64,000 nt of DNA from Anaeramoeba ignava BMAN (Eukaryota; Protista; Anaeramoebae), in contig JAPDFW010000088.1 in the NCBI GenBank assembly GCA_028826165.1, positions 186,001 to 250,000 on the forward strand. The letters run 5' to 3'. A model generated the notes under the pieces. That model was not told the DNA's origin and searched no databases. It saw only the letters and a program-made list of their open reading frames with translations. Positions 33,000 through 62,300 of this stretch are shown here, in pieces. Made by a program: the position numbers and the translations under genes. The stretch's first letter is position 1, and each line of letters starts with the position of its first letter.

Positions 33000-35900
33000 A
33001 TGGATCAAGAAGTTAAATTGAAAAACACACATAATATTCTTAATGAATTAAGTCAACCAATTCAAACAGTTGAAGAAAAATGGAAATTATTACCTCTTTT
33101 TTTTAGAACAAGAGGATTATTAAAACAACATATCGATTCTTTTAATCATTTAGTTAATATCGATTTAAAAAAAATTCTTCAAGCAAATCAAAAAATTACT
33201 TGTAAATCTGATCCAACATTTTATATGAAATACTTGGATATTTTTGTTGGAAAACCCGAAATTCAAGATGAAGTAATAACTAGAGAAATAACACCTCAAG
33301 TAACCAATCTTAAAATTAAAATTAAAATTAAAATTCAAATCAAAATTAAAATTAAAATTAAAATCAAAATTAAAAATAAAATTAAAATTAAAATCAAAAT
33401 TGATATTAAAATCAAAATTAAAATTAAAATTAAAAATAAAATTAAAATTAAAATTAAAATTCAAATCAATATTAAAATTAAAATTAAAATTAAAATTAAA
33501 AATAAAATTAAAATTCAAATCAAAATTAAAATTAAAATTAAAATTAAAATTAAAATTAAAATTAAAATTAAAATTCATTTATAAAATTAAAATTAAAAAT
33601 TAAAATTCAAATTAAAATTAAAATTCAAATTATAATTAAAATTAAAATTCAAATTAAAATTAAAATTAAAATTAAAATTAAAATTAAAAATTCAAATTAT
33701 AATTAAAATTAAAATCAAAATCAAAATTAAAATTAAAATTAAAATTAAAATTAAAATTAAAATTAAAATTAAAATTAAAATTCATTTATAAAATTAAAAT
33801 TAAAATTAAAATTAAAATCAAAATTAAATTTAAAATTAAAATTAAAATTAAAATTAATATTAAAATTAAAATTAAAATTAAAATTAAAATCAAAAATTAA
33901 AAATAAAATTAAAATTCAAAATCAAAATTAAAATTAAAATTAAAATTAAAATTAAAATTAAAATTAAAATTAAAATTCATTTATAAAATTAAAATCAAAA
34001 ATTAAAATTAAAATTAAAATTAAAATTAAAATTAAAATTAAAATTAAAATTCATTTATAAAATTAAAAATTAAAATCAAAAATTAAAATTAAAATTAAAA
34101 TTAATAATTAAAATTCATTTATAAAATTAAAAATTAAAATTAAAAATTAAAATTAAAATTAAAATTAAAATTAAAATTAAAATTATAATTAAAATTAAAA
34201 TTAAAATTAAAATTAAAATTAAAATTAAAAATAAAATTAAAATTAAAATTAATAATCAAAATTAAAATTATAATTAATATTAAAATTAAAATTAAAATTC
34301 AAATTAAAATTAAAATTAAAATTAAAATCAAAATTAAAATTAAAATCAATATTAAAATTAAAATTAAAATTAAAATTAAAATTAAAATTAAAATTAAAAT
34401 TAAAATCAATATTAAAATTAAAATTAAAATTAAAATTAAAATTTAGCAATGCAGATTAAGAGATATTACTTATAGTGCACCTATATTAGTTAATGTTGAA
34501 TTTATCAGAGATAAAAAAGCATATATTAAAAAAAATGTGATAATTGGAAGATTACCAATTATGCTTCGAAGTGAAAAATGTATTCTTTATGGAAAAAGTG
34601 ATACTGAAATATCAAATCTTGGAGAATGTACACTTGATCCTGGTGGTTATTTTATTATTAATGGAGTAGAAAAAATTTGTTTAATTCAAGAACAATTATC
34701 AAGAAATAGAATTATTGTTGATCAAGATGGAAAAGGAATTATTAGTGCAAATGTTATTAGGTTGGGTTATATTTATTAAAATAATATTAAAATATTAAAA
34801 TAATTATTAAAATATTTATTAAAATATTTATTAAAATATTTATTAAAATATTTATTAAAATATTTATTAAAATATTTATTAAAATATTTATTAAAATATT
34901 TATTAAAATATTTATTAAAATAATATTAAAATAATATTAAAATAATATTAAAATATTTATTAAAATATTTATTAAAATATTTATTAAAAATAATATTAAA
35001 ATATTTATTAAAATATTTATTAAAATAATATTAAAATAATATTAAAATAATATTAAAATAATATTAAAATAATATTAAAATAATATTAAAATAATATTAA
35101 AAAATATTTATTAAAATATTTATTAAAATATTTATTAAAATAATATTAAAATATTTATTAAAAATATTTATTAAAATATTTATTAAAATATTTTATTAAA
35201 ATATTTATTAAAATATTTATTAAAATATTTATTAAAATATTTATTAAAATATTTATTAAAAATATTTATTAAAATAATATTAAAATAATATTAAAATAAT
35301 ATTAAAAATAATATTAAAATATTTATTAAAATAATATTAAAATAATATTAAAATAATATTAAAATAATATTAAAATAATATTAAAATATTTATTAAAATA
35401 ATATTAAAATATTTATTAAAATAATATTAAAATATTTATTAAAATATTTATTAAAATAATTATTAAAATAATATTAAAATAATTATTAAAATAATACTAA
35501 AATATTAAAATATTATTAAAATATTTATTAAAATATTTATTAAAATATTATTAAAATTTATTTAATAGTACAACACACGAAAGAATCAGTAGAACAAGTG
35601 TAATCCTCAAAAAATCTAAGTTATATCTCAAACATAATACATTTTCAGAAGCAATACCAATTGTAATAGCATTTAAAGCATTAGGAATACAAAGCGATCA
35701 ACAAATCATTCAATTAATTGGAACAGATAGTTTTATTTTAACCTCATTAAGTGCATCATTTCAAGAATCAATGAAACTTCAAATATTCACACAAAAACAG
35801 AGTTTAATGTACATTTACAAACGAACAAAAGGTTCAAAACCTGGAAGAAAACAAGTTCCAATATCATATGCACTTGATGTAGTAACAGGAGTTATTCTAT

Positions 35901-38900
35901 CACATATAAAGGCTGAAAACGGAGATTTGCGCATGAAAAGCATCACTTTAGCATTAATGGTTCGTCGTGTTTTAAAGGCAAATAAAGACATCAATTTTCT
36001 TGATGATAGAGACTATTATGGAAATAAACGGTTGGAACTTACTGGTCCTTTACTTGCCATTCTGTTTGATGATTTGTTCAAGAAATTCAATACTGAGTTG
36101 TCTCGTATTGCTGATGCTTCTTTATCCAAAAGAAACTTGGCTGCTCAGTTTGATATTGTTAAGTCTATTCGTATTGATACAATTACTAATGGTTTGGTTA
36201 GAGCTATTGCAACCGGTAATTGGACTCTGAAAAGATTTAAAATGGCAAGAGCTGGGATTACTCAAGTTTTATCTCGTTTATCTTACATTTCTTGTTTGGG
36301 TAAAAAAATTTCCAAAAAAAAAAAAATTTCAAATCATTTCAAATTAAATTCAAATTTAAATTAAAAAAAAAAGGAATGGTAACTAGAATCTCTTCACAAT
36401 TTGAAAAAACAAGAAAAATAAGTGGTCCAAGATCTCTACAAACAAGTCAGTTCGGGATTTTGTGTTGCTCCAAAGATACATCAATTTTAATGGATGATAA
36501 AATAAACACATGCTTTATAGATGATCTTTATTACAATCAAAAAAAAGACATTTCAATAATCACAGTAAACCCAAAATCCCTTGAAGAAAAAACATCCAAA
36601 ATCACGGAAAAGCAGCATTTTTATATCCATTCGTTAAAACAAAAACTATTCACAGTTAAAACGGTTACTGATAGAGAAATTTGTGTAACAGAAGATCATC
36701 CATTTCTCACAAAAAGGGGATTTGTCCAAGCCCAGCATTTAACTCACAATGATTGTGTTTGTATTAGACACACTTTGGAAAATCTTTCGAAAACTCAAAA
36801 CAAAACACATTTCGCTATCACTTCTGAAAAACAAATGCAAATCCAATTTCCAAATATTAACTTGAATTTGATAATCCAAAAACTTGATCAAATTAAATTG
36901 CTTCCTTTGGATAGTCAAAATGAAAAATTATCCATTTTAACAAGATTATTGGGAACTTTAATCTCCCGCGGAAATATCATATCGAAACAATTTAACCTAA
37001 AAATAAACCAACAAGTCGATCAAAATGATATCCATTTCATTTTTTGCATGGATTCAAGTCAAGATGCCTCTCAATTAATATCCGATTGCAAATCAATTGG
37101 ATTTTCAGATTCAATTTGGATCAAAGAAAAGGAAAAATCGAAAAATTTTCAACGAAGTTCCAACATCATTTGCAAAAATAACGCCTTGATTTATCTTTTA
37201 TTATCTCTTTTACATCCATTGGATATTATAAATATTCAGCAGAAAAATTCGCAATTTGCACAAATACCGAAATGGATTTTAGAATCAAGCAAGTTAATTA
37301 AAAGAGAATGGCTTTCGAGCGTTCATGGCTATTTTGTGGAAAGTGATCTGGTTCAAAATGGGATATTCAAAAGAAATTGTGCAAGCCAAAGTTTTGCGAA
37401 AAATTTCATCTTACAACAAATACTTCTTTTCAGAGAATTTGGGATTGAAACAACAGAAGAAATGTATTCATCAAATTTATTATTTCTTCCAAAAGATTCT
37501 TTCTTAAATTACTGGAAAAAAATTGGTTTCCGTTATTGCTTCTTTGCAGAACAGAATGCGAGAATAACGGGAGAGTTTTTGCTTTATTATAGACATTTAA
37601 AAAGCAAGAGTGAAGTCACAGAAGAAAAAGCAATTGAAAAATTCCGTTTAAATTTTAAATTTGAAAACGGGATGATTTTTGTCCCCGTTGACAGCATATC
37701 TCCTGAAACAAAGGTGAAGGAGGTTTATGATCTAACAACACAAAGCATCAATCACACATTTGTTGCAAATGGGTTTGTGACGCATAATTGCCCTTCTGAC
37801 ACTCCTGAGGGCGAGAGTTGCGGACTTGTGAAAAATCTTGCGCTTCTTTCTCACATCACAACAGACTCTGAAGAAGAGCCTGTGTTTAGAGCAGCCCTTA
37901 TGCTAGGCATTGAAGAAGTTGATTTTCTTTCGGGAGAAGAATTATCATCAGGAGAAGCAACTGTAATCTTTCTTAATGGGCGTATAATTGGGATACATCG
38001 AAAACCGCTTATTTTTATATCGCAATTTCGCATTTTGAGAAGATGGGCTCAAATTGCCGAATTTGTTTCAATTTTCTTCAACGAGAAGAAGAACTTTATC
38101 GAGATATCATGTGATGGAGGAAGATTATGCCGTCCTCTTATCATAGTTGATAAAAACGGAAAGCCAAGAATCACAAAGGAGCATATTCAACAGTTGTCAC
38201 AACCACTTGAAAATATTGAAGATCGCCAGAACTTTTTTGGCAAAGTGAAATATTCGAAATCAATATTCAAATATTTTCTTTCGAATGGGATACTTGAATA
38301 TTTGGATGTGAATGAAGAAAGTAATTGCAATATTGCTCTTTATGAAAACTTAATAATTCCTGGTGTAACAACTCATCTTGAAATTGAACCATTGACTATT
38401 CTTGGGATTTGTGCAGGAATCATCCCTTTTCCTCATCATAATCAATCTCCTAGAAACACTTATCAATGCGCTATGGGCAAGCAAGCTATGAGTATTTTGG
38501 CGGAAAATGAATTGACTCGTGTTGATTCCGCTCTTTATTATTTGTGTTATCCTCAAAAGCCTTTAGTAAGAACTAAGGCTTCCGATTTATTTAGATTTGA
38601 TCGTTTACCTGCTGGTCAGAATGCGATGATTGCTGTTATGAGTTATTCTGGTAGAAAATCAAAAATTTAATTTAGAATCTTAATCAAAAATTTAAATCAA
38701 AAATTTAATTTAAAATCAAAAATTAATTTAAAATCAAAAATTTAAATTAAAATCAAAAATTAAATTAAAAATTTAATTTAAAATCAAAAATTTAAAATCA
38801 AAAATTTAATTTAAAATTTAATTTAAAATTTAATTTAAAATCAAAAATTAAGGTTATGATATCGAAGATGCAGTCATTTTAAATAAATCTTCTTTGGATC

Positions 38901-41412
38901 TCGGTTACGGTCGTTGTATGATTTATAGAAGATATAGTGCACAAATATCACAATATCCAAATCAATCATTCGATAAATTGGTTTCACCATCAGAACTAGA
39001 GCTACAAAGAGGAATCAAATTTAAATTACTTGATGAAGATGGAATTTGTCAACCAGGATTGAAAATATCAAATGGACAAGTAATGTTCAACAAACAAGTC
39101 CCAAAAAGTACAACAGACACTATTGTAAATGTTCAAAAAATTGAACACAAATCATCTCCAGTTATTTACAAATCAACCGAAGGAGTTATTGATAGAGTCA
39201 TCTTGACAAACAATAAATCAACACAATTATTAGTTAAATCTGTAATTAGAAGCACAAGAAGACCTGAATTGGGAGATAAATTCTGTTACGATCCAAAAAC
39301 TCAAATTCTCACAGAAAAAATAATGGTTGATTCCCTTCAAAAATTAAATTATTCCCATAAAGTCGCTACTTTGGTTGATTTTGAAAACATCTTTTTATCA
39401 ACATCTATTCGCATTTTCAAATATAATCATTTCGGATTAATGTATTTTCTTCGAAATAATGCTGTCGATCAATTGGTCACTTTGAATCATAAAATATTCG
39501 CCAAAATCCCAACAAAAACACATTTTGATTTGGAAAATATTGAAGATGTTTTCGGATTGGAAAAATGTAGAGTTTAAAAACAGCTCAAAATTTAAACTCA
39601 TCTCAAATTAACTTTTAAATTAGACGGAATCATTCAATCACAAAATTTCAAAAGTTGGATCATTTTCTTTGCTTTTTGGATTCAATCTTTTGTTTCTTCT
39701 CAAAACAAAAGGATGAAAAAATTGATAATTAATTTAAATTATTCGGAATCAATCCGCAAATTATTTTTGTCAACTTGTCAAAAACTTGATTTGAAAATCA
39801 ACAACGAATTTGGAAAAAAGGAAATTATTATTGAAAATGGAAAGTTATTCAAATATTTTAAATCATTAAGAAATGAAAAATGGAAACAATTCCCAAAAAT
39901 CCCAAATTGGATTTGGAAACTAAACACTGAATATTCTCAACTTCTTTTAAAAACAATACTTAAACTTGAAGAACATAAAACTGATGATAATTATACTAAC
40001 AAATTTAGAAAAAGCAAAGAGCATTGGAGCTTCAAAACACAGAACAAAATGTTTCTAAATTTTCTTCAGCAATTATCTCTGCATTCAGAATTATCAGCAG
40101 ATATTGAAAAAAGGAAGGAAAAAAAGGAAAAAATTTACAATATCAAAATTTTCATTGGATCAAGCATTGGATTGAAATCACTTGAAAAAACGGAGAATCA
40201 AAAAGAAAGAGAAGAGGGATTAATTGAGTATTCAGGGAAAGTTTATTCATGCGAAACAACAAGCGGGGTTATTTATGTGAGAAGAAAAGGAAAATCTTTC
40301 TGGGGAGGCAACTCAAGTCGACATGGACAGAAGGGAGTTTGCGGCTTGATTGTTGAGAAGGAAGATCTGCCTTTCTCAGAAAACTGGAGTAGTTCGGATA
40401 TGATCATGAATCCCCATGGTTTTCCTAGTCGAATGACAGTTGGGAAAATGATAGAATTGTTGGGCTCAAAATGTGCACTTTGTGATGGCAATTTGAGAGA
40501 TGGAACAGTTTTTTCAGGAAATAGAAGTCTTGATTTAATGAACGTACTCATTGAATATGGATACTCGTTTTCTGGGGGAAGGATGTTCTTTATTCAGGCG
40601 TTAATGGATTGCCTCTTTCTGCTTATATTTTCTTTTGGTCCTGTTTATTATCAAAAATTAAAGCATATGGTTATGGATAAGATATTTGCACGTTCAAAGT
40701 ATTTTTAAGAACCTTTTTCAATTGGAAAAATCCTCAAAAGAAAATCCTCTTCATTTTTGATGTGGATTATTTATTGGTTTTGATTTTTGAAATATTTATT
40801 TTTGTTATTTTTTCTTTCTTGATTTTAGTATGGGACCTCGAACAGCCTTAACTAGACAACCAACAGAGGGGAGAGCAAGAGGTGGTGGTTTGCGATTAGG
40901 TGAGATGGAGAGAGATTGTTTAGTTGGATATGGATCAAGTTTACTTTTGCAAGAACGATTAATGTATTCTTCTGATTTATTTATTGTTACTGTTTGTGGA
41001 GTAAGTAATAAATTTTTATCCGATTTTCAAATCAATAATTTTAATTTTAATTTTAATTTTAATTTTAATTTTAATTTTAATTTTAATTTTAATTTTAATT
41101 TTAATTTTTGAATTAAATTTTAATTTTAATTTTAATATTAATTTTAATTTTAATTTTAATTTTTGAATTAAATTTTAATTTTAATTTTAATTTTAATTTT
41201 AATTTTAATTTTAATTTAAGAAATGTGGATCTTTGGGTTATGATGGTTGGTGTCCATATTGTAAATCTTATGAAAATTGTACCAAACTTGAAATGCCTTA
41301 TGCTTGCAAATTATTATTTCAAGAACTTCAATCAATGAATATTGCTCCAAAATTAAAATTAACTGATTTAAATGACGTATTTGATTTAAATCAACCAAAT
41401 GAAGTTAAATAG
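33000..41412 (+). CDS. RPC2: RNA polymerase III second-largest subunit, containing two inteins
   Basis: Exons 33000-33299, 34447-34760, 35569-36299, 36374-38650, 38853-~40698, 40829-41000 and 41221-41412. VEEKWKLLP...[11 protein letters not shown] is RPC2-type. Also [83 protein letters not shown] and [16 protein letters not shown]. Confidence 0.97.
36463..37788 (+). mobile_element. Intein 1 in RPC2 (442 aa, degenerate LAGLIDADG region)
   Basis: In-frame insertion splitting QFGIL|CPSDTPEG. Starts CCSKDTSIL; block B TEDHPFLT; ends [22 protein letters not shown] followed by Cys+1. Endonuclease remnants [27 protein letters not shown] and KIGFRYC. Confidence 0.96.
39284..40312 (+). mobile_element. 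Intein 2 in RPC2 (~343 aa, ends Gly-Asn, Ser+1; internal indels in this assembly)
   Basis: Insertion splitting ELGDKF|SSRHGQKG. Starts [10 protein letters not shown]; block B VTLNHKIF; ends [28 protein letters not shown]. The length of 1029 nt keeps the frame overall, but there is a stop at 39575 among compensating indels. Confidence 0.93.
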
Positions 41413-42163: not shown

Positions 42164-44808
42164 ATGACAAATATTCACGAAGCTGTCCAAAATTCTGATT
42201 CTAAATTAGTTCTTCAATTACTTGATAAAGGAGAAGATATTAATAAAAAAACTGAAGTAAAAAAAAAAAAAAAAAACTTATTTTTATCAAAATTTTGTTT
42301 TCTTAAATTAAATTTTTTAAAAAATAAATTTATTTAGAATGTAAAATAAAAAATTTAAATAAAATTCCCAAAAAAAAATTTCATTAAAAATTCTAAATAA
42401 AATTTTACTTCAAAAAGCGAGTAATTTTTAAATAAAATTTTATTTTCATTAATAAATTTTATTTAAAAAAAAATTCATTTCAAAATAATTTGATGTTTCT
42501 ATTTTATTTTATAAAGCAACTTACACCTTTACATCTTGCCTGTTCATTAGGAAATACTAAAATGGCAAAATTATTAATTGAACATGGAGCTGAAGTTAAT
42601 TCAAAAAATGTAAAAAATCAAAATGAATCAAAATCATTTAAAACAAAAATTTCTTTTTAAATTATTTTCCATTTTAGAAAGTAAAAAAATAATAAAATTT
42701 AATTTGATTTTATTTGATTTTTATTTAATTTAATTCAATTTAATTCAATTCAAAAAGCATGTAAATTTTTTAATCATTTTTCCAAATAAATTTTTCAACT
42801 GTAAATATTAATAAATAATAACTTACAGAATAGAACACCGTTACATTATGCTTGTCAAGCAAATGCTGTTGCATCACTTATTCAATTATTACTTGATTCA
42901 GGAGCTGATATTAATTCCCGAGATGTTAATATTCAAATATAAAAAAAATTTGGCAATTAAAAATATTGAAAAGAAAGAAAAATATTTTTTTTTTTAGAAT
43001 GTAAACTTTAATCTTTCATTTTTAAAAGATAGAAATTAAATTCAAAATGATAATTTCAATCCAAATATTTAGAAAGTAAAACAATTTTTTCTTGATTTGG
43101 AAATTATTTGATATTTAATCCAAAAAAAAATATCAAATAATTTTTTTTATTAGGATGATACTCCTCTTCATTTTGCTTGTTTTAATAAATTAAATGAAGA
43201 AAGTATGAAGGCTTTATTGAGTTGCAAACCTTCTCTTAATATTACAAATGTAGAAACATTTTAAAAAAAAAAAAAGAAAAATTTGAAATTTTAATAAAAT
43301 TTAAAAATTAACAAAAAAAAATTCAAAGAAAGTAAAATTAAAAATAAATTCAATTTGTAAAACAGATGTTAAAAATAATTTACTGGTAATGAAATAGAAA
43401 GTAAAATATAAATTTAATTTTAAAAATCAATCATTTTCATCATATATTCATTTTGGAAACAAAAATATATTTTTGATAAATATAATAGAATTATACTCCT
43501 TTAGATTGTGCAATTAAAAAAATAGCGCAAAAAGAAGTAATAGAAATGCTAAAATTGGCTGGAGCAAAAACAAAAGTAAAATGAATATTTTTATTTTTAT
43601 TTTTATTTTTAAGTTTAAGTTTAAATTTAAATTTAAATTTTTAGAATGTAGCAAATTCCGATTTCCAAAGTTTATTTAATGAAATTACGCAAGCAATGAA
43701 AAAGAAGCAATTATTAGTAACTTATATTGATACAATTAATGTATTGATTGATATTCCAAAAAAAAATTAGAATAATTGAAACAATTTATAGACATTTTGA
43801 AAAATTTTCAATTTTGAATTTTGAAAAAAAAAACAATTTAAAAAATCAAGAATTTCAAAGAGCAAATTGTGGATTCTCTTGTTGAAAATGAAGGATTTAC
43901 AAATAATTTGGTTCATCATTCACTGTTAAGGAAATCATATGAGGATTGCCAAGCAATTTGTCATTGGTTTTATGATTGGTATCAAAGTGGAACATCAAAA
44001 TTACAAATATTTACAATTAAATACTTCCCGATTTTAGTGTGGAAATTCTTATATTTTTATACGCATTCATCAATCCCACAAGCAAAGCAAAAACAACAAA
44101 TTACTGAAGGAGATCTTCAGAAATTAGCATCAATACAAGCGTTTCTTTTGTCAGTTTTTTATTCCGAAATTGAATCAAAGGAAAAAAGAGTTTTTCATCC
44201 AGTTTCTCTTGAAATTCCTTCTGTTTTCCATAAGCCTTTTGCTCAAAAAGTACAAAAATTAACTGAATCAAGTTTGCAAAAGCATGATTTCCAAGAGCAA
44301 CAAAGAAAATTAGTTTATATTGAAAATATTCCAATGATAAAAAGTTTTTCCACTTTGAATTCTGCACTTTTGCAAAAAGTTTTACTTTCAAAAATTTAAT
44401 CAATATCATTCCGAAATGCCAATTAATTCTCTCCAAAATTATTGCGCAATTTGTGCAAGAATTGCAACAATTGGTTCGGAAAAAGCATTTGATATTGATC
44501 AAGAAACTGTCACAAAGCAAATCCATCAAATTTCACAAGAAAAATGGGTTGAATATATGCTTTATTATCCAGAATATCATGAAAAAGAAAAAAAGATTAA
44601 AATTGAAAATGAAATTAAATTCTATCTTTCAAATGAATTGTTTCAAGAAATGTTATCAGGAATTATGCTTTGTTTTAGTCGTTCTCAAGATTTAATTAAT
44701 TCAGCAAAATTATCACTTTCTTTAATACATTATCGAGCTGTTTATGATTTAATTCCTGAAGTTTTATTAACAACAAATAGCATGATGAAAATTTCTGAAA
44801 ATATTTAA
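42164..44808 (+). CDS. Ankyrin-repeat protein (5 repeats, with 3-nt micro-exons), probably fused to a hyccin/FAM126 domain
   Basis: Ankyrin exons 42164-42256, 42517-42609, 42829-42924, 43154-43249 and 43489-43575 (TPLH motifs); linker exon 43645-43740; last exon 43851-44808 with one indel near 44392. That exon has AICHWFYDWYQSG...KYFPILVW...SLEIPSVFHKP...SLQNYCAICARIATIG...IHYRAVYDLIPEVLLTTNSM, matching hyccin family motifs. Confidence 0.8.
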
Positions 44809-54260: not shown

Positions 54261-54830
54261 ATGGAAATAAAACAAGAAAATTTACCATTAAATAATGGAG
54301 AAAGATATTTTAAAGAAAATTCAATACAAAATAAACCAAAAAATAATATAATTGTTCATCCAGTTCAAATTATTGAAAAAAATGTATTTTTAATTTAATT
54401 TAATTTTATTTTTTATTTTAATTTTATTTTATTTAAATTTTAATAATAAAAAAGAATGAAATTTTTGAAAAAAGAGCTAATTATCAAATTGCTAAAAATA
54501 CATTTGGAGAACATATGATAATGAGATTTATGATTGAAGAACAATTTTTTTCAGAACCAATGAGACTTCCAGGTCTTTCTTCTTCATTTATTGGATTAGA
54601 AACAATACTTGGAAAAGATGATTCTATTTCTCTTAATGATTATTTGAATTGTATTTTATTTCTATTTTTTTAAATTTTAATTTTTAAATTTTTAAATTGA
54701 GAACCAAAAACAATTTTAATTTTTAATTTTAAATTTTTAATTATAAATAAAAATAGCTGGATTTGAATCACCAGAAGAATCTTTAGATTTACATCAAACA
54801 ATGGAAAAAAAATTGGGACTTTTTAATTAA
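54261..54830 (+). CDS. UMP1: Proteasome maturation factor UMP1/POMP
   Basis: Three exons: HPVQIIEKN...NTFGEHMIMRFMIEEQFF...RLPGLSSSFIGLETILGKDDSISLNDYLN...DLHQTMEKKLGL. Confidence 0.9.
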
Positions 54831-55914
54831 ATTCAATCTTTAAATCCAATTTTAAATTCAATTTTAAATCCAAATTTTAAATCCAAATTTTAAATCCAAA
54901 TTTTAAATTCAATTTTAAATTCAATTTTAAATCAAATTTTAAATTCAAATTTTAAATCCAATTTTAAATTCAATTTTAAATCCAAATTTTAAATCCAAAT
55001 TTTAAATCCAAATTTTAAATCCAATTTTTAAATCAAATTTTAAATCAAATTTTAAATTCAATTTTTAAATTCAATCTTTTTCTTTTCTTTTTTCTTTTTT
55101 GAAAACAAAAAATCAATAAAACAAAATGATCCAAAAAAATTTTTTAAAAAATAAGAATAGATTTAATTTAATATTTAATTTATAAATTAATTTAAAAATA
55201 TAATTTAATATTTAATTTTATGTTTAAAATAATAATTTAATGTTTTAGATTTAAATATTTTATTATTTAAATATTTAACATATAAAAATATAAAAATAAG
55301 AATAGATTTAATTTAATATTTAATTTATAAATTAATTTAAAAAAATATAATTTAATATTTAGTTTTATTATTAAAATAATAATTTATTGTTTTAGATTTA
55401 AATATTTTATTATTTAAAAATATTTTGAAAATTGATTTTTTTGAAATTAAAATTTTATCTTTTTTTTTTGAATTAAATTGAATTAATATTAATTTGGAAA
55501 TTTGTTTTTAATTTAAATAATCTTTAAATTCCAAAAATTAAATTTAATTTCCTTTTTTTTAATTATTTTCATTTTTTTTCATTTTTTTTTCAAAATAAAA
55601 ATAAAAACAATTTTAATTAAGTAAATATTTTTTAAAAAAAATTAAATATAAAAATATTAAATTAAGCATAAATTATTTATTAAAAACATTTAAATAATCA
55701 AATTAATTATAAATTAATAATTAAAATTAAATTTATTTAATAAAAAATAAAAATAAAAAACAATTTTAATTAAGTAAATATTTTTTAAAAAAAATTAAAT
55801 ATAAAAATATTAAATTAAACATAAATTATTTATTAAAAACATTTAAATAATCGAATTAATTATAAATTAATTATTTTTTCCTTTTTTAAAAATTAAGAAA
55901 AAAAAGACAAGTTA

Positions 55915-58900
55915 ATGAATTCAAATCAAAATCAAAAAGAATCTGTTGAAGAAACAATAAGAACTATGAAAGAATTTCCAAATAATCAAGTTATTCAATT
56001 TAATGGATGTAGAGCTTTAACTAATATTTCTGTTAATGAAGGTAAATATAAAATATAAAATTAATTAAATAAAATTAATTTAATCATTTATTTATTTATT
56101 TATTTATTATCAATCATTAATTAATTAAAAATATTTAATCAATTTATTTCCAAAAAATCAAAAATAATAAAATAGAAAACCAAATTGAAATTAGAAATTT
56201 AAAAGGAATTGAATCTATTATTAAATCAATGAATAATTTCCCAAATAATCAAGATATTCAAAGAAATGGATGTAGAGCTTTATTGAATATTGCTGTTAAT
56301 AATAATGGTAAATATAAAAAATAAAATTAATTTAATTTAAATTAATTTATTATTAATTATTAATTAACCAAAAATATTTAATCAATTTATTTCCAAAAAA
56401 TCCAAAAAAATTAATTTCAATTTCAATTTCAAATTTATTTCTTCAAAAATAACAAAATCAAAAATATCAAAATAGAAAACCGAATTGAAATTAGAAATTT
56501 AAAAGGAATTGAATCTATTATTAAAGCAATGAATAATTTCCCAAATAATCAAGATATTCAAGAAAAAGGATGTGGAGCTTTATGGGATATTGCTATTAAT
56601 GAAGGTAAATAAATAATATAAAATAAAAAATCAAATAAAATAAAATTAATTTAATCAATTATTTATTATTAATTATTAATTAATCAAAAATATTTAATCA
56701 ATTTATTTCCAAAAAATCCAAAAAAATTAATTTCAATTTCAATTTCAAATTTATTTCTTCAAAAATAACAAAATCAAAAATATCAAAATAGAAAATCAAA
56801 TTGAAATTAGAAATTTAAAAGGAATTGAATATATTATTAAAGCAATGAATAATTTCCCAAATAATCAATTTATTCGAGAATATGGATGTGGAGCTTTAGG
56901 GAATATTGCTGCTGATAATAATGGTAAATAAAAAATATAAAATAAAATTAATTCAATCAATTATTTATTATTAATCATTAATTAAAAATATTTAATCAAT
57001 TTATTTCTTCAAAAATAACAAAATCAAAAATATCAAAATAGAAAATCAAATTGAAATTAGAAATTTAAAAGGAGTTGAATATATTATTAAAGCAATAAAT
57101 AATTTCCCAAATAATCAAAATATTCAAAGAAATGGATGTGGAGCTTTAAGGAATATTGCTTATAACGAAGGTAAATAAAAATATAAATTTAAATAAAATT
57201 AATTTAATTAATTATTTATTATTAATTAATCAAAAAATATTTAATCAATTTATTTCCAAATCAAAAATCCAAAAAAATTCATTTCAATTTCAATTTATTT
57301 CTTCAAAAATAACAAAATAACAAAATAGGAAATCAAATTGAAATTAGAAATTTAAAAGGAATTGAATATATTATTAAAGCAATGAATAATTTCCCAAATA
57401 ATCAAGATATTCAAGAAAAAGGATGTGGAGCTTTATGGGATATTGCTGTTAATAATAATGGTAAATAAAAAATAAAAATATAAAATCAATTTAATAAATT
57501 AATTTATTATTAATTATTAATCAAAAAATATTTAATTAATTTATTTCCAAATCAAAAATCCAAAAAAATTCATTTCAATTTCAATTTATTTCTTCAAAAA
57601 TAACAAAATAGAAAATCAAATTGAAATTAGAAATTTAAAAGGAATTGAATATATTATTAAAGCAATGAATAATTTCCCAAATAATCAATATATTCAAGAA
57701 AATGGATGTGGAGCTTTATCGAGTATTGCTGTTAATAATGGTAAATAAAAATATAAAATGAATAAAATTAATTTAATCAATTATTTATTATTAATTATTA
57801 ATCAAAAAATATTTAATCAATTTATTTCCAAATCAAAAATCCAAAAAAATTAATTTCAATTTTAATTTATTTCTTCAAAAATATCAAAATAATAAAATAG
57901 AAAACAAAATTGAAATTAGAAATTTAAAAGGAATTGAATATATTATTAAAGCAATGAATAATTTCCCAAATGATCAATTTATTCAAGAATATGGATGTGG
58001 AGCTTTATGGAATATTGCTGCTGATAATAATGGTAAATAAAAAATATAAAATAAAATTAATTTAATCAATTATTTATTATCAATTATTAATCAAAAAATA
58101 TTTAATCAATTTATTTCCAAAAAATCCAAAAAAATTAATTTCAATTTTAATTTATTTCTTCAAAAATAAAAAATATCAAAAATAACAAAATAGAAAATCA
58201 AATTGAAATTAGAAATTTAAAAGGAATTGAACTTATTATTAAATCAATAAATAATTTCCCAAATAATCAAAATATTCAAGAAAATGGATGCGGAGCTTTA
58301 TGGAATATTGTTGCTGATAATAATGGTAAATAAAATAATATAAAATAAAATTAATTTAATCAATTATTTATTATCAATTATTAATCAAAAAATATTCATT
58401 TCAATTTTAATTCCAATTTCAATTTTAATTTATTTCTTCAAAATAAAAAATATCAAAAATAACAAAATAGAAAATCAAATTGAAATTAGAAATTTAAAAG
58501 GAATTGAATATATTATTAAAGCAATGAATAATTTCCCAAATAATCAAAATATTCAAGAATATGGATGTGGAGCTTTAGGGAGTATTGCTGTTAATAATGG
58601 TAAATAAAAAATATAAAATAAAATTAATTTAATCAATTATTTATTATTAATTATTAATCAAAAAATATTTAATCAATTTATTTCCAAAAAATCCAAAAAA
58701 ATTAATTCCAATTTCAATTTTAATTTATTTCTATAAAAATAAAAAATATCAAAAATAACAAAATAGAAAATCAAATTGAAATTAGAAATTTAAAAGGAAT
58801 TGAATATATTATTAAATCAATGAATAATTTCCCAAATAATCAATTTATTCAAGAATATGGATGTGAAGCTTTAGGGAATATTTCTCTTAATGAAGGTAAA

Positions 58901-59173
58901 TAAAAAAAAATCCAAATCATTTTTTTTCATTTCTTTTTTGAAATCAAAATCAAAAATCAAAAATGGAAAAAATGATTATTTATTTATTAATTTAATTTAT
59001 TTTCCTTTTCAAAAAATAAATAAATAGAAAATCAAATTGAAATTAGAAATTTAAAAGGAATTGAACTTATCCAAAAAGCAATGAATAATTTCCCAAATAA
59101 TCAATATATTCAAAGAAATGGAAAATTAATTTTAGAAAGATTTGAAAAAAAATCAAATTTTTTTAACTTTTAA
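55915..59173 (+). CDS. Armadillo-repeat protein, 12 exons, one repeat per exon
   Basis: Exons 55915-56041, 56176-56307, 56476-56604, 56792-56923, 57042-57170, 57329-57460, 57612-57740, 57901-58032, 58194-58325, 58471-58599, 58767-58895 and 59028-59173. Repeat consensus ENQIEIRNLKGIEYIIKAMNNFPNNQxIQExGCGALxNIA. Confidence 0.92.
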
Positions 59174-59300: not shown

Positions 59301-62300
59301 TTAAAAATTTAAATCATTAATTTCTTGAGAATATTTTTCACGAACTTGAGAAGTTAAAGATTGAAAAGCGTCAAATAAAGAAGGGAATTTTTGGATATCA
59401 TTTTCATAAATATCTTGATTTGGAATTGTTTTTTCATTCTCACCCATTTTTGGGATTTTTTTGAAATTATTTGAGATCTGGAATAATTGATTTGAAACTT
59501 CTTCATTAAATAAGTTGTTTTTTTGAAGATTTTCAGAAATTTGATCCAAATTATTTTCAAATTGTTTTTCGAGCTTACTAATAAAAGGATCAATTCCTCT
59601 TGCAAGAGAAAAAGTGGAAAGCCCAACTTTTAAATAAAACATTGATAATTCAATTAATAGGCTTGAATTAATAAGGAAAGTTAATAATTGATCAATATTA
59701 TTAAATGTTGATAAATCTTGAGTAAATAAAATATTAAAGTGGAGTTGTAAAGATAATCGGATATAAATGAATGCGATTTTATCATCAATCCTTTTTCTTG
59801 ACTTCTGTTTATGAAATAAAAAGATGCAAGATTCATAATAATTTCCATTAAGTAAAGCAACAAGTCCTGAAAGAAACTAAAAGAATTTTAAATTTTAAAT
59901 TTTAAATTTTAAATTTTAAATTTTAATGAATTTACATATTTTATGCTTTGTTTATAATCTTCCCATTCAAACTCATCTTCATCTTTAATTCTACGAAAAT
60001 TAAAATGCTTAAATTCACTAATTAAAGAAAGTAATTTCGAAGCTGCATAAACACCAGTTTCGTAATCAGTAATCAATTTTGAACCATTAAATTTCTCTGA
60101 ATAAAGTTGGGAAATATAAAGAAATTTAGCTTGAATATATCGGTCATTTCCAATTTCAAATGAAATGAGATCAAAAAGAAGAGGATCTTTTGTTGGATCT
60201 TCTTTCATTGTTGAAAAATCTTTAATTTGGGATTCAAAACCCTCATCAAATTTCCTTTTCAATTCATGGATCTCTCCATCAACTTCGTGGTTTCTTTTTC
60301 TTTTATCCCATGAATCCAATTTTTCTTGGAATTGGGCATTTTCCTCTTCGATTTGAGGGATTAACTCATCAGGAATCGTATTTTTGAAGATGAATTCTCC
60401 TTTGTTTGAAACTAAAGATTCACTAAGATAAATCAAACCGAGAACTCCTTCTTCCAAATTTTTTTGGACATTCCTAAATGTCATTTGAAGGGATCCGTTT
60501 TGATTAAACATCCACCATTTATCTTGTTGCAAATAGTTAATAAAAACGCTTGTGTAATCATTCCCGTAATATCTATTCTTTGCGAAAACTGCATGAAGAT
60601 GATATACTTCTGATTTGTATTTGTCAAACAATTTTTCCTTTTCTGATGTTATTTTTTCCAAATCTGCGTCAATTTTCTTGACGTATTTGGAAATTCTTTG
60701 CGATTCATAATTCAATGTTGATAGCAGAAGTTTTTTTTCATCCACTCCATATTTTTGTGTAAAATAATTAATTGTTGTTGAAATGAAAAAATCAGCAGTT
60801 TTATCAGTTTTGTTGAAGTTTGTGATTTTCTCCTTTTCTTCATTTAATTTATTGATTTTGTTCATTAAATTTTGATCTTCTTCTCTTTTATTTTCAAATT
60901 CATTTAAATTCTCGATTAAATAGCGTTCAAGATATATTTTTTCATCAAGATTAAATTTGGGGATTTTGTGTGAATTTGAATTCTTGTCTGATTCTTCATT
61001 TTTTAGGTTTAAGATAAGAATTGAGGGAAATTTATCGATTCGATTTGATCTAAATTTGTCATCTTCATCCGTTTTTCTTAAAGATGTGTAATTGTTAAGT
61101 ATTTGATAAGAATTTATTGAATTTTCCAATAAAACTTCTAATTGATTTGCTTCTATTGGATTTGATTCATTAACGAGGAACTCATCAGTTCCATTTTCAT
61201 GATTAATTATTAGATCAGAAATTTCTATCTGGAAAAATTCTTTTAATTTTTTGAAAATTTGAGAATTTTGTGTGTTTTTTTCAATTTCTATTTGATTTTC
61301 AATTTCCATTTTTTTTGGATCATTTTTCAATTCTTCGTTCATTATTTCAAGAAATGTTTCAAAGATATTTGATAAACTATTTTGATCCAATTTTTCTTTT
61401 TTTCTTATTTTCATTTGTTTGTAAATTTCTTTTCCTTCAACAATATTTTTTTTGGACTGAATTAATTTAGAGAATATCAAGCGAATTTGATTGAAGACTT
61501 TTGAGGAAAAAAAAATATTAATTTTTAAATTTTAATTTTTAAAATTTTAATTTTTACTTGAATTTTCTGAATTTTCTAATTTATTTTGGAGGAATATATT
61601 TTGGATTTGTGGAATAAAGAAAAGAGATAATAAAAGAGAATTTAAGCTTTGATTTCCATTAACTAAACCAGAAAGAAAATCTTTTTTTTTCAACATTTGA
61701 TAAGGATCTACTGGTTCACGAAAAATATTTTCCATATTTAAATTGTGAGTGATTTCCATATCTTTATCATTAAAATCAGATGATCTATCAATTATTCCTC
61801 CATGAGACTAAATAATATTTAATTTAATAAATATTTAATTTATATTTAATTTATATTTAATTTATATTTAATTTATATTTAATTTATATTTAATTTATAT
61901 ATAATTTGTATTTATATTTATATTTATATTTATATTTATATTTATATTTAATTTATATTTAATTTATATTTAATTTATATTTAATTTATATTTAATTTAT
62001 ATTTAATTTATATTTAATTTATATATAATTTATATTTAATTTATAATTTTATATTTATTTATATTTAATTTATATTTAATTTATATTTAATTTGATTTTT
62101 AATTTGATTTTTATATTTAATTTATATTTAATTTATATTTAATTCATAAATATTTAATTTATATTTAATTCATAAATATTTAATTTATATTTAATTTATA
62201 TTTAATTTTATTTATTTAAATATTTAATTTATATTTAATTTATAAATATTTAATTTTATTTTAATTTATATTTAATTTATATTTAATTTATATTTAATTT

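Follow-up and report, generated by a model that had tools for sequence, protein, structure and literature searches.

Tandem one-repeat exon cassettes in an armadillo-only gene of Anaeramoeba ignava, with variation on the predicted groove

Introduction

Towards one end of the 64,000-nucleotide stretch of Anaeramoeba ignava BMAN DNA analysed here (contig JAPDFW010000088.1; hereafter the window), a run of short, closely similar exons encodes armadillo (ARM) repeats. The locus raises the question of how such an array came about, what drives the differences among its repeats, and whether those differences are deployed at the level of DNA or of splicing. A sequence-only reading had proposed a diversifying recognition protein whose specificity could be changed by exon skipping, shuffling or unequal crossover.

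An armadillo-only gene with one repeat per exon

Parsing of donor and acceptor sites gives an armadillo-only gene with LRRK2/aardvark-type repeats on the plus strand at 55915..59173, in 12 exons whose joined frame is open over 525 codons. All 22 splice ends are intact, and each of the 11 introns (all phase 1, 118-187 nt) contains exactly one GT and one AG, which makes the gene model unambiguous. Exon 1 (55915..56041) encodes an N-cap repeat with a diverged 5′ half and a putative start codon, and exon 12 (59028..59173) a C-cap repeat plus the stop. Between them, on the same strand, lie ten internal repeats: exon 2 (56176..56307, 132 nt), exon 3 (56476..56604, 129 nt), exon 4 (56792..56923, 132 nt), exon 5 (57042..57170, 129 nt), exon 6 (57329..57460, 132 nt), exon 7 (57612..57740, 129 nt), exon 8 (57901..58032, 132 nt), exon 9 (58194..58325, 132 nt), exon 10 (58471..58599, 129 nt) and exon 11 (58767..58895, 129 nt). 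In agreement with the earlier count of ten 129/132-nt internal exons flanked by phase-1 introns, these are all symmetric (phase 1-1) and of near-fixed length, each encoding a whole H1-H2-H3 repeat of 43-44 amino acids. The ten helix-3 strings read off previously (RN-GCRALLN, EK-GCGALWD, EY-GCGALGN, RN-GCGALRN, EK-GCGALWD, EN-GCGALSS, EY-GCGALWN, EN-GCGALWN, EY-GCGALGS and EY-GCEALGN) likewise all match our translations.

No signal or membrane segment is evident in the sequence of the product. The gene contains no effector domain, and there is no room for one between its unrelated neighbours. A phase-1 AG at 55896-55897, just before the exon 1 ATG, could be an upstream acceptor. By eye, a direct repeat of ~130-150 nt lies at 55590-55870, just upstream of the start codon. 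The neighbour at 59301-61531 (minus strand) encodes a ubiquitin hydrolase (PF00443); on the other side are a CwfJ-domain gene at 52-54 kb and a small gene at 54262-54830 (plus strand) that by eye resembles the proteasome maturation factor UMP1.

Repeat class, paralogs and predicted fold

All 12 exons match PF23744 (LRRK2-type ARM) weakly (E 3e-4 to 0.08), each singly below the curated cut-off. In searches with an exon profile, A. ignava proteins rank first, and 13 of them appear among the matches listed. The closest among these matches, P0001 and P0002 (81 and 79% to the query repeat), have a RING-kinase-SH3-ARM architecture, and their caps resemble those of the present gene (the N-cap both, the C-cap P0002). 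Further A. ignava paralogs carry BTB with or without RCC1. The gene's own product is absent among the matches listed in two profile searches (20 and 26). We found no Roc-COR or NB-ARC domain in the ARM-only gene or in the 8 A. ignava paralogs scanned.

The fold that we use is that of paralog P0001 rather than of the 525-codon product itself. Folded with 30 sequences, which superseded a single-sequence model with a mean pLDDT of 38, P0001 reaches a pLDDT of 95-99 over its ARM part and has three helices per repeat, with H2 at repeat positions 11-20 and H3 at 25-38. In this model the exon border coincides with the beginning of H1, and therefore one exon corresponds to one repeat. The top Foldseek matches are the engineered protein 4rv1, designed armadillo-peptide complexes and beta-catenin. 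Repeats of 43-44 residues, the P0001 fold and these matches together place the array among armadillo proteins, that is, solenoids of three-helix, ~42-residue repeats. PDB sequence matches had also brought up designed TPRs, an identity that we rejected: the similarity covers only a 16-18-residue stretch, and the fold is armadillo instead.

In repeat sequence and three-helix fold the array resembles LRRK2/aardvark/ZER1-type repeats (PF23744, PF22964, PF00514), including A. ignava paralogs annotated "aardvark". The present gene, which is not an orthologue of LRRK2, Aardvark or beta-catenin, consists of ARM repeats only, at ~91% DNA identity to one another. Another A. ignava protein, P0042, has the RING-kinase front of P0001 and P0002 but a different, nearly homogeneous array of ~34-residue repeats, so that the RING-kinase chassis appears, from this comparison, to take exchangeable repeat arrays. 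A metagenome scan confirmed none of its 288 pattern matches.

The repeats are recombinant mosaics

The internal exons are on average 91% identical in DNA (86.5-96.8%), and mismatches are concentrated: 27.9% inside eight codons that we assign to the groove (defined below) versus 4.4% outside them, in line with the nearly identical scaffold DNA described before. The flanking introns had also been called homologous. This is so for introns 1-10 (56042..58766), which differ by 6.0% in ungapped columns, but not for intron 11 (58896..59027), whose body is 20% mismatched; 10 of the 11 introns are thus copies of one another, and with exons this similar, recent duplication of exon plus intron as a unit is borne out.

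Duplication has been accompanied by sequence exchange among repeats, as the sequence-only reading supposed: 38 of 78 pairs of biallelic informative sites fail the four-gamete test, and the repeats are recombinant mosaics. Some repeats that are not neighbours share groove alleles (exons 3 and 6, 4 and 8, 2 and 5), and the nearest relatives among introns tend to adjacency (5-7; 8-10), with low tree support. The combination would fit block duplication plus conversion. The groove signatures of the ten repeats are all distinct.

Helix-3 variation lies on one face

The groove set comprises codons 26, 29, 30, 33, 36, 37, 40 and 41. It was chosen after the alignment had been inspected, and its positions follow in part those of designed-armadillo libraries. 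The repeat register was fixed with the primer given in the part of PMC11228518 available to us. In the accessible part of PMC4756613, positions 27, 32 and 34 of designed armadillos form the inter-repeat interface and positions 30 and 33 the peptide-binding surface. The natural array behaves alike: across the ten repeats, 27, 32 and 34 are invariant, and 30 and 33 vary. Variability along helix 3 is periodic (p 0.007) and centred ~187 degrees from the hydrophobic face. Mapped on the predicted structure of the paralog, the variable sites line the side of helix 3 that points away from its buried face. On the P0001 fold and the designed-armadillo numbering, this face is predicted to be the concave peptide-binding groove.

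Most of the variation, as had been claimed, is in helix 3, with 21 of 35 amino-acid changes on groove codons; the claim does not extend to the other 14, notably those at codon 13 (helix 2) and codon 42 (a loop). Designed armadillo repeat proteins, as far as described in the portions of PMC4756613 and PMC11228518 consulted, similarly combine a constant, stackable scaffold with a variable helix-3 surface, with 27, 32 and 34 fixed and 30 and 33 exposed. The present array differs in being natural, in having mostly Gly at position 33 and Trp at 36, and in replacing Asn37 in 4 of 10 repeats (Asn in six, Asp in two, Ser in two). Armadillo proteins typically have a conserved ladder of Asn residues on helix 3 that binds an extended peptide.

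Probable selection on the groove codons

The minimum number of changes among the ten repeats is 35 nonsynonymous and 3 synonymous, with 21 of the 35 on the eight groove codons. The ratio of groove nonsynonymous to all synonymous change is 5.9-8.7 under all five mutation weightings (p 2e-5 to 6e-4). Codon models give a groove omega of 5.1-8.7 and 0.8-1.0 outside in all four tree/frequency settings, and M2a is preferred over M1a in the same four (p 3e-3 to 7e-10). The elevated dN/dS expected at the groove from a per-site test among repeats is thus found (omega 5-9), with dS calibrated by only 3 synonymous changes in an extremely A+T-rich genome and with recombination inflating the site-model tests. 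By site scores, codons 13 and 42, both outside the groove, also appear as selected (0.91-1.0), and groove codon 33 never does.

Neutral repeat turnover, in which replication or crossover errors expand and homogenise an array and less constrained surface positions drift, with no selection for new specificity needed, would explain the overall amount of change, since the total at codon positions 1+2 (32) matches the intron expectation of 26-33. The scarcity of silent changes, a genome full of tandem repeats, the homogenised array of another kind in P0042 with its little visible variation, and the mostly purifying selection on Tetrahymena 90-bp-exon LRR genes (in the part of PMC6564038 seen) are all compatible with it. 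What it does not explain is where the changes fall. Groove codons change about three times as often as intron columns matched for base class (A/T or G/C), faster than drift, bounded by the neutral rate, would allow (20 changes observed against 6.5 expected, p 2e-5), and non-groove codons fall below the same reference (12 observed, 26.5 expected). Equally polar codons outside the groove stay fixed: 16 of them together have 8 changes, compared with 20 for the groove's 8 (p 4e-5). Variable and invariant codons also alternate with the helical period, a pattern that conversion tracts would not yield, and if the groove pattern is shifted by -4 to +1, it covers 4-14 changes against the 20 in register. 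The base-matched intron rates and the helical periodicity also rule out a mutational hot spot or G/C hypermutability.

A hindsight-proof version of the test, in which the top-scoring 8 of the 42 codons are compared with intron rates, yields p values of 0.002, 0.027 and 0.090 for three column filters. This outcome is borderline and counts on the side of neutral turnover; with it kept in view, we score the ligand-face residues as diversifying. Taken together, the substitution patterns make positive selection on the groove of the array quite likely, and neutral turnover unlikely.

Family copies and splicing in public contigs

We searched four public runs with exon 10 and short flanks at 80% likeness; the searches covered assembled contigs only, and none of the runs is on record as RNA. 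Exon 10 recruited 1221, 899, 622 and 563 contigs. Rough copy floors for X1-X3 are 115, 87 and 38 (peak summed depth divided by 31 times that of the deepest of the 8 pieces listed per run; depth is not copy number), which would put the family, as a rough estimate, well beyond the 12 repeats of the present gene. Among the 40 variant rows listed, the largest non-silent shares are at codons 13, 17, 25, 26, 29, 30, 36 and 37, so that the family-wide contigs vary at groove codons 26, 29, 30 and 36, as do the ten repeats. Codon 13 is Pro in most family copies versus Tyr, Ser or Leu in the present gene.

In X5, another sample whose kind is not recorded, depth reaches 1,525-61,584 within the exon bins, compared with 38-61 over the 5′ intron flank and 13 beyond the exon. 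A joint from the exon end back to an exon start occurs in four X5 contigs and in none from X1-X3: members of the ARM family are spliced at an exon-to-exon junction, head to tail. X5 holds only 0.05 of the present gene's words, so these joints speak for the family and little for the present copy, and the junction does not tell which exon follows because the 5′ 75 nt are nearly identical across exons. X1 and X5 have a few joints in common, a hint that some diverged paralogs may lack the introns.

Could the repertoire be produced by splicing itself, with cells skipping or choosing cassettes to make many isoforms from one ARM gene? Every internal exon is symmetric, so any skip keeps the frame, and each cassette has a distinct groove; in brown-algal ROCO genes, LRR exons are reportedly spliced in alternative ways (available part of PMC11378527). 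Exon symmetry follows from duplication alone, though, and the introns, which are short, share the same canonical ends and offer no other GT or AG, give no sign of regulated skipping. Exon skipping is moreover reported as infrequent outside bilaterians, the only group among the 65 eukaryotes compared in PMC6142364 in which it is raised, as far as the accessible part of that paper goes. We regard such a splicing-based repertoire as improbable.

The gene might alternatively derive from a RING-kinase-SH3-ARM paralog whose ARM part was copied and became detached, either non-functional or kept as a reservoir, its groove diversity having been selected in the parents. The likeness of its caps to those of P0001 and P0002, the lack of an effector domain and of space for one, the absence of its product among the matches listed and the acceptor-like AG before the ATG would all follow. 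A decayed copy would sit poorly with the open 525-codon frame, the full set of splice ends and scaffold changes at less than half the intron expectation. Codon 13, with Tyr, Ser or Leu where most family copies have Pro, suggests that the present gene evolved as its own array, and we consider a detached copy very unlikely.

The same repeat subtype in other proteins

The exon-profile search returned 2144 representatives at E up to 0.001. Groove identity is lower than scaffold identity in all 140 related proteins with at least 4 ungapped repeats (of 173 stored), and the pattern therefore seems generic for this ARM subtype, although it is partly built in by the profile; 24 of these proteins have a scaffold identity of at least 0.70. 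Partner domains in 50 scanned proteins of the top 150 matches include kinase (7), U-box (5), caspase (1) and ADP-ribosyltransferase (1), and a scan of 22 chosen proteins adds BTB, RING and one MLKL-N-kinase-ARM protein. In other organisms, the partners of the subtype in P0142, P0062, P0016, P0021 and P0024 are MLKL-N together with a kinase, a caspase, an ADP-ribosyltransferase or a TIR-like domain, the last by eye at the N-terminus of P0024. These architectures suggest that the ARM subtype may be a swappable sensor module across protists. In the literature searched, we found no paper on such fusions.

Other features of the window

The array had been linked to two other loci in the window. An "MLKL-like locus" is not upheld: none of the 9 ORFs scanned at 2-32 kb has an MLKL Pfam match. 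At 6500-32000, paralogous ORFs form a block that has been duplicated and in part inverted; they have one weak kinase-like match (E 0.002), and by eye the C-terminal part appears PARP-like. Candidate ankyrin micro-exons are indeed present in the DNA but have no link to the ARM gene. They are 3-nt candidates (AG, three bases, GT) in an ankyrin-repeat gene at 42166-43600 (plus strand); the pattern has 9 matches in the 1.4 kb of this gene, one of them inside an exon, versus 10 in the other 62.6 kb. By eye each repeat has roughly two, which would encode the variable residues of the hairpin that precedes the TPLH motif. They are possibly more surprising than the ARM array.

An inverted-repeat scan gave 174 pairs, of which the 25 longest are 71-82% complementary; as A+T-rich pairs without a control, they were set aside. 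At 33000-41400 (plus strand) lies a gene for the second-largest subunit of an RNA polymerase with an intein (PF14890); a second intein is apparent by eye. The available part of PMC10710043 describes inteins in RPC2 of Anaeramoeba, and both this gene and the A+T content of the window fit the genus as known from that paper and the genome preprint.

Discussion

We favour the view that this gene consists of tandem ARM cassettes, each one repeat encoded by an exon plus its intron, whose predicted groove has probably diversified through changes in the DNA itself, yielding a cytosolic binder with shifting specificity, a reading that we hold to be somewhat likely as a whole. Unequal crossover and conversion among cassettes, together with probable positive selection, would diversify the groove. 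The phase-1 symmetry of the layout would allow repeats to be gained, lost or swapped in frame; conversion and homogenisation would keep the scaffold stackable, with selection keeping groove alleles distinct. The concave face may read an extended peptide ligand. Because paralogs join the array to RING-kinase-SH3 or BTB, it likely picks targets for ubiquitin or kinase signalling: the paralogs would pass targets to those outputs, and the ARM-only copy would probably serve as a free adaptor, decoy or repeat reservoir. Defence or symbiont recognition would be a plausible role. A bolder scenario, a genome-wide recombining library of ARM cassettes that move between genes, are wired to RING, kinase and BTB effectors and recognise symbiont, prey or virus proteins, with some isoforms made by skipping, strikes us as doubtful.

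Known exon-cassette systems offer close parallels. Brown-algal ROCO (LRR) and NB-ARC-TPR genes, in the parts of PMC3341825 and PMC11378527 consulted, likewise place each repeat on a symmetric exon of its own, shuffle these exons, show diversifying selection on the repeats and have a candidate recognition role; the present gene differs in its armadillo repeat, its lack of Roc-COR or NB-ARC, its Anaeramoebae lineage and the absence of inverted or inactivated intronic exon copies. In Tetrahymena, a bacterivorous protist, the LRR genes with 90-bp exons form a large family that numbers in the thousands; their exon-intron units are young, tandem, constant in length and of a single intron phase, and unequal crossover has been proposed for them (PMC6564038, in part). 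Our exons differ in length (129/132 nt), in phase (1) and in encoding armadillo repeats, and show a groove nonsynonymous excess in contrast to the selection regime of the ciliate genes. By analogy, the ARM gene would work like the brown-algal and Tetrahymena arrays while belonging to none of them. The literature searched, mostly outside subscription journals, yielded no armadillo exon-cassette precedent; the main text of the Anaeramoeba genome preprint, as available, has 0 occurrences of "armadillo", "aardvark" or "BTB", and its supplements may list the family.

A diversifying armadillo cassette array, that is, a known strategy in a new repeat class and a new lineage, is well supported. It would carry diversification by exon cassettes, known from LRR and TPR repeats, over to armadillo repeats and to an anaerobic lineage that branches deeply and has an elaborate bacterial symbiosis. 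If the wider library were real, it would be a natural counterpart of engineered armadillo binder libraries. Because natural variation falls where engineers vary armadillo binders, a peptide code read repeat by repeat could readily be tested on the array, and its ligand, once found, would address intracellular non-self recognition in single-celled eukaryotes.
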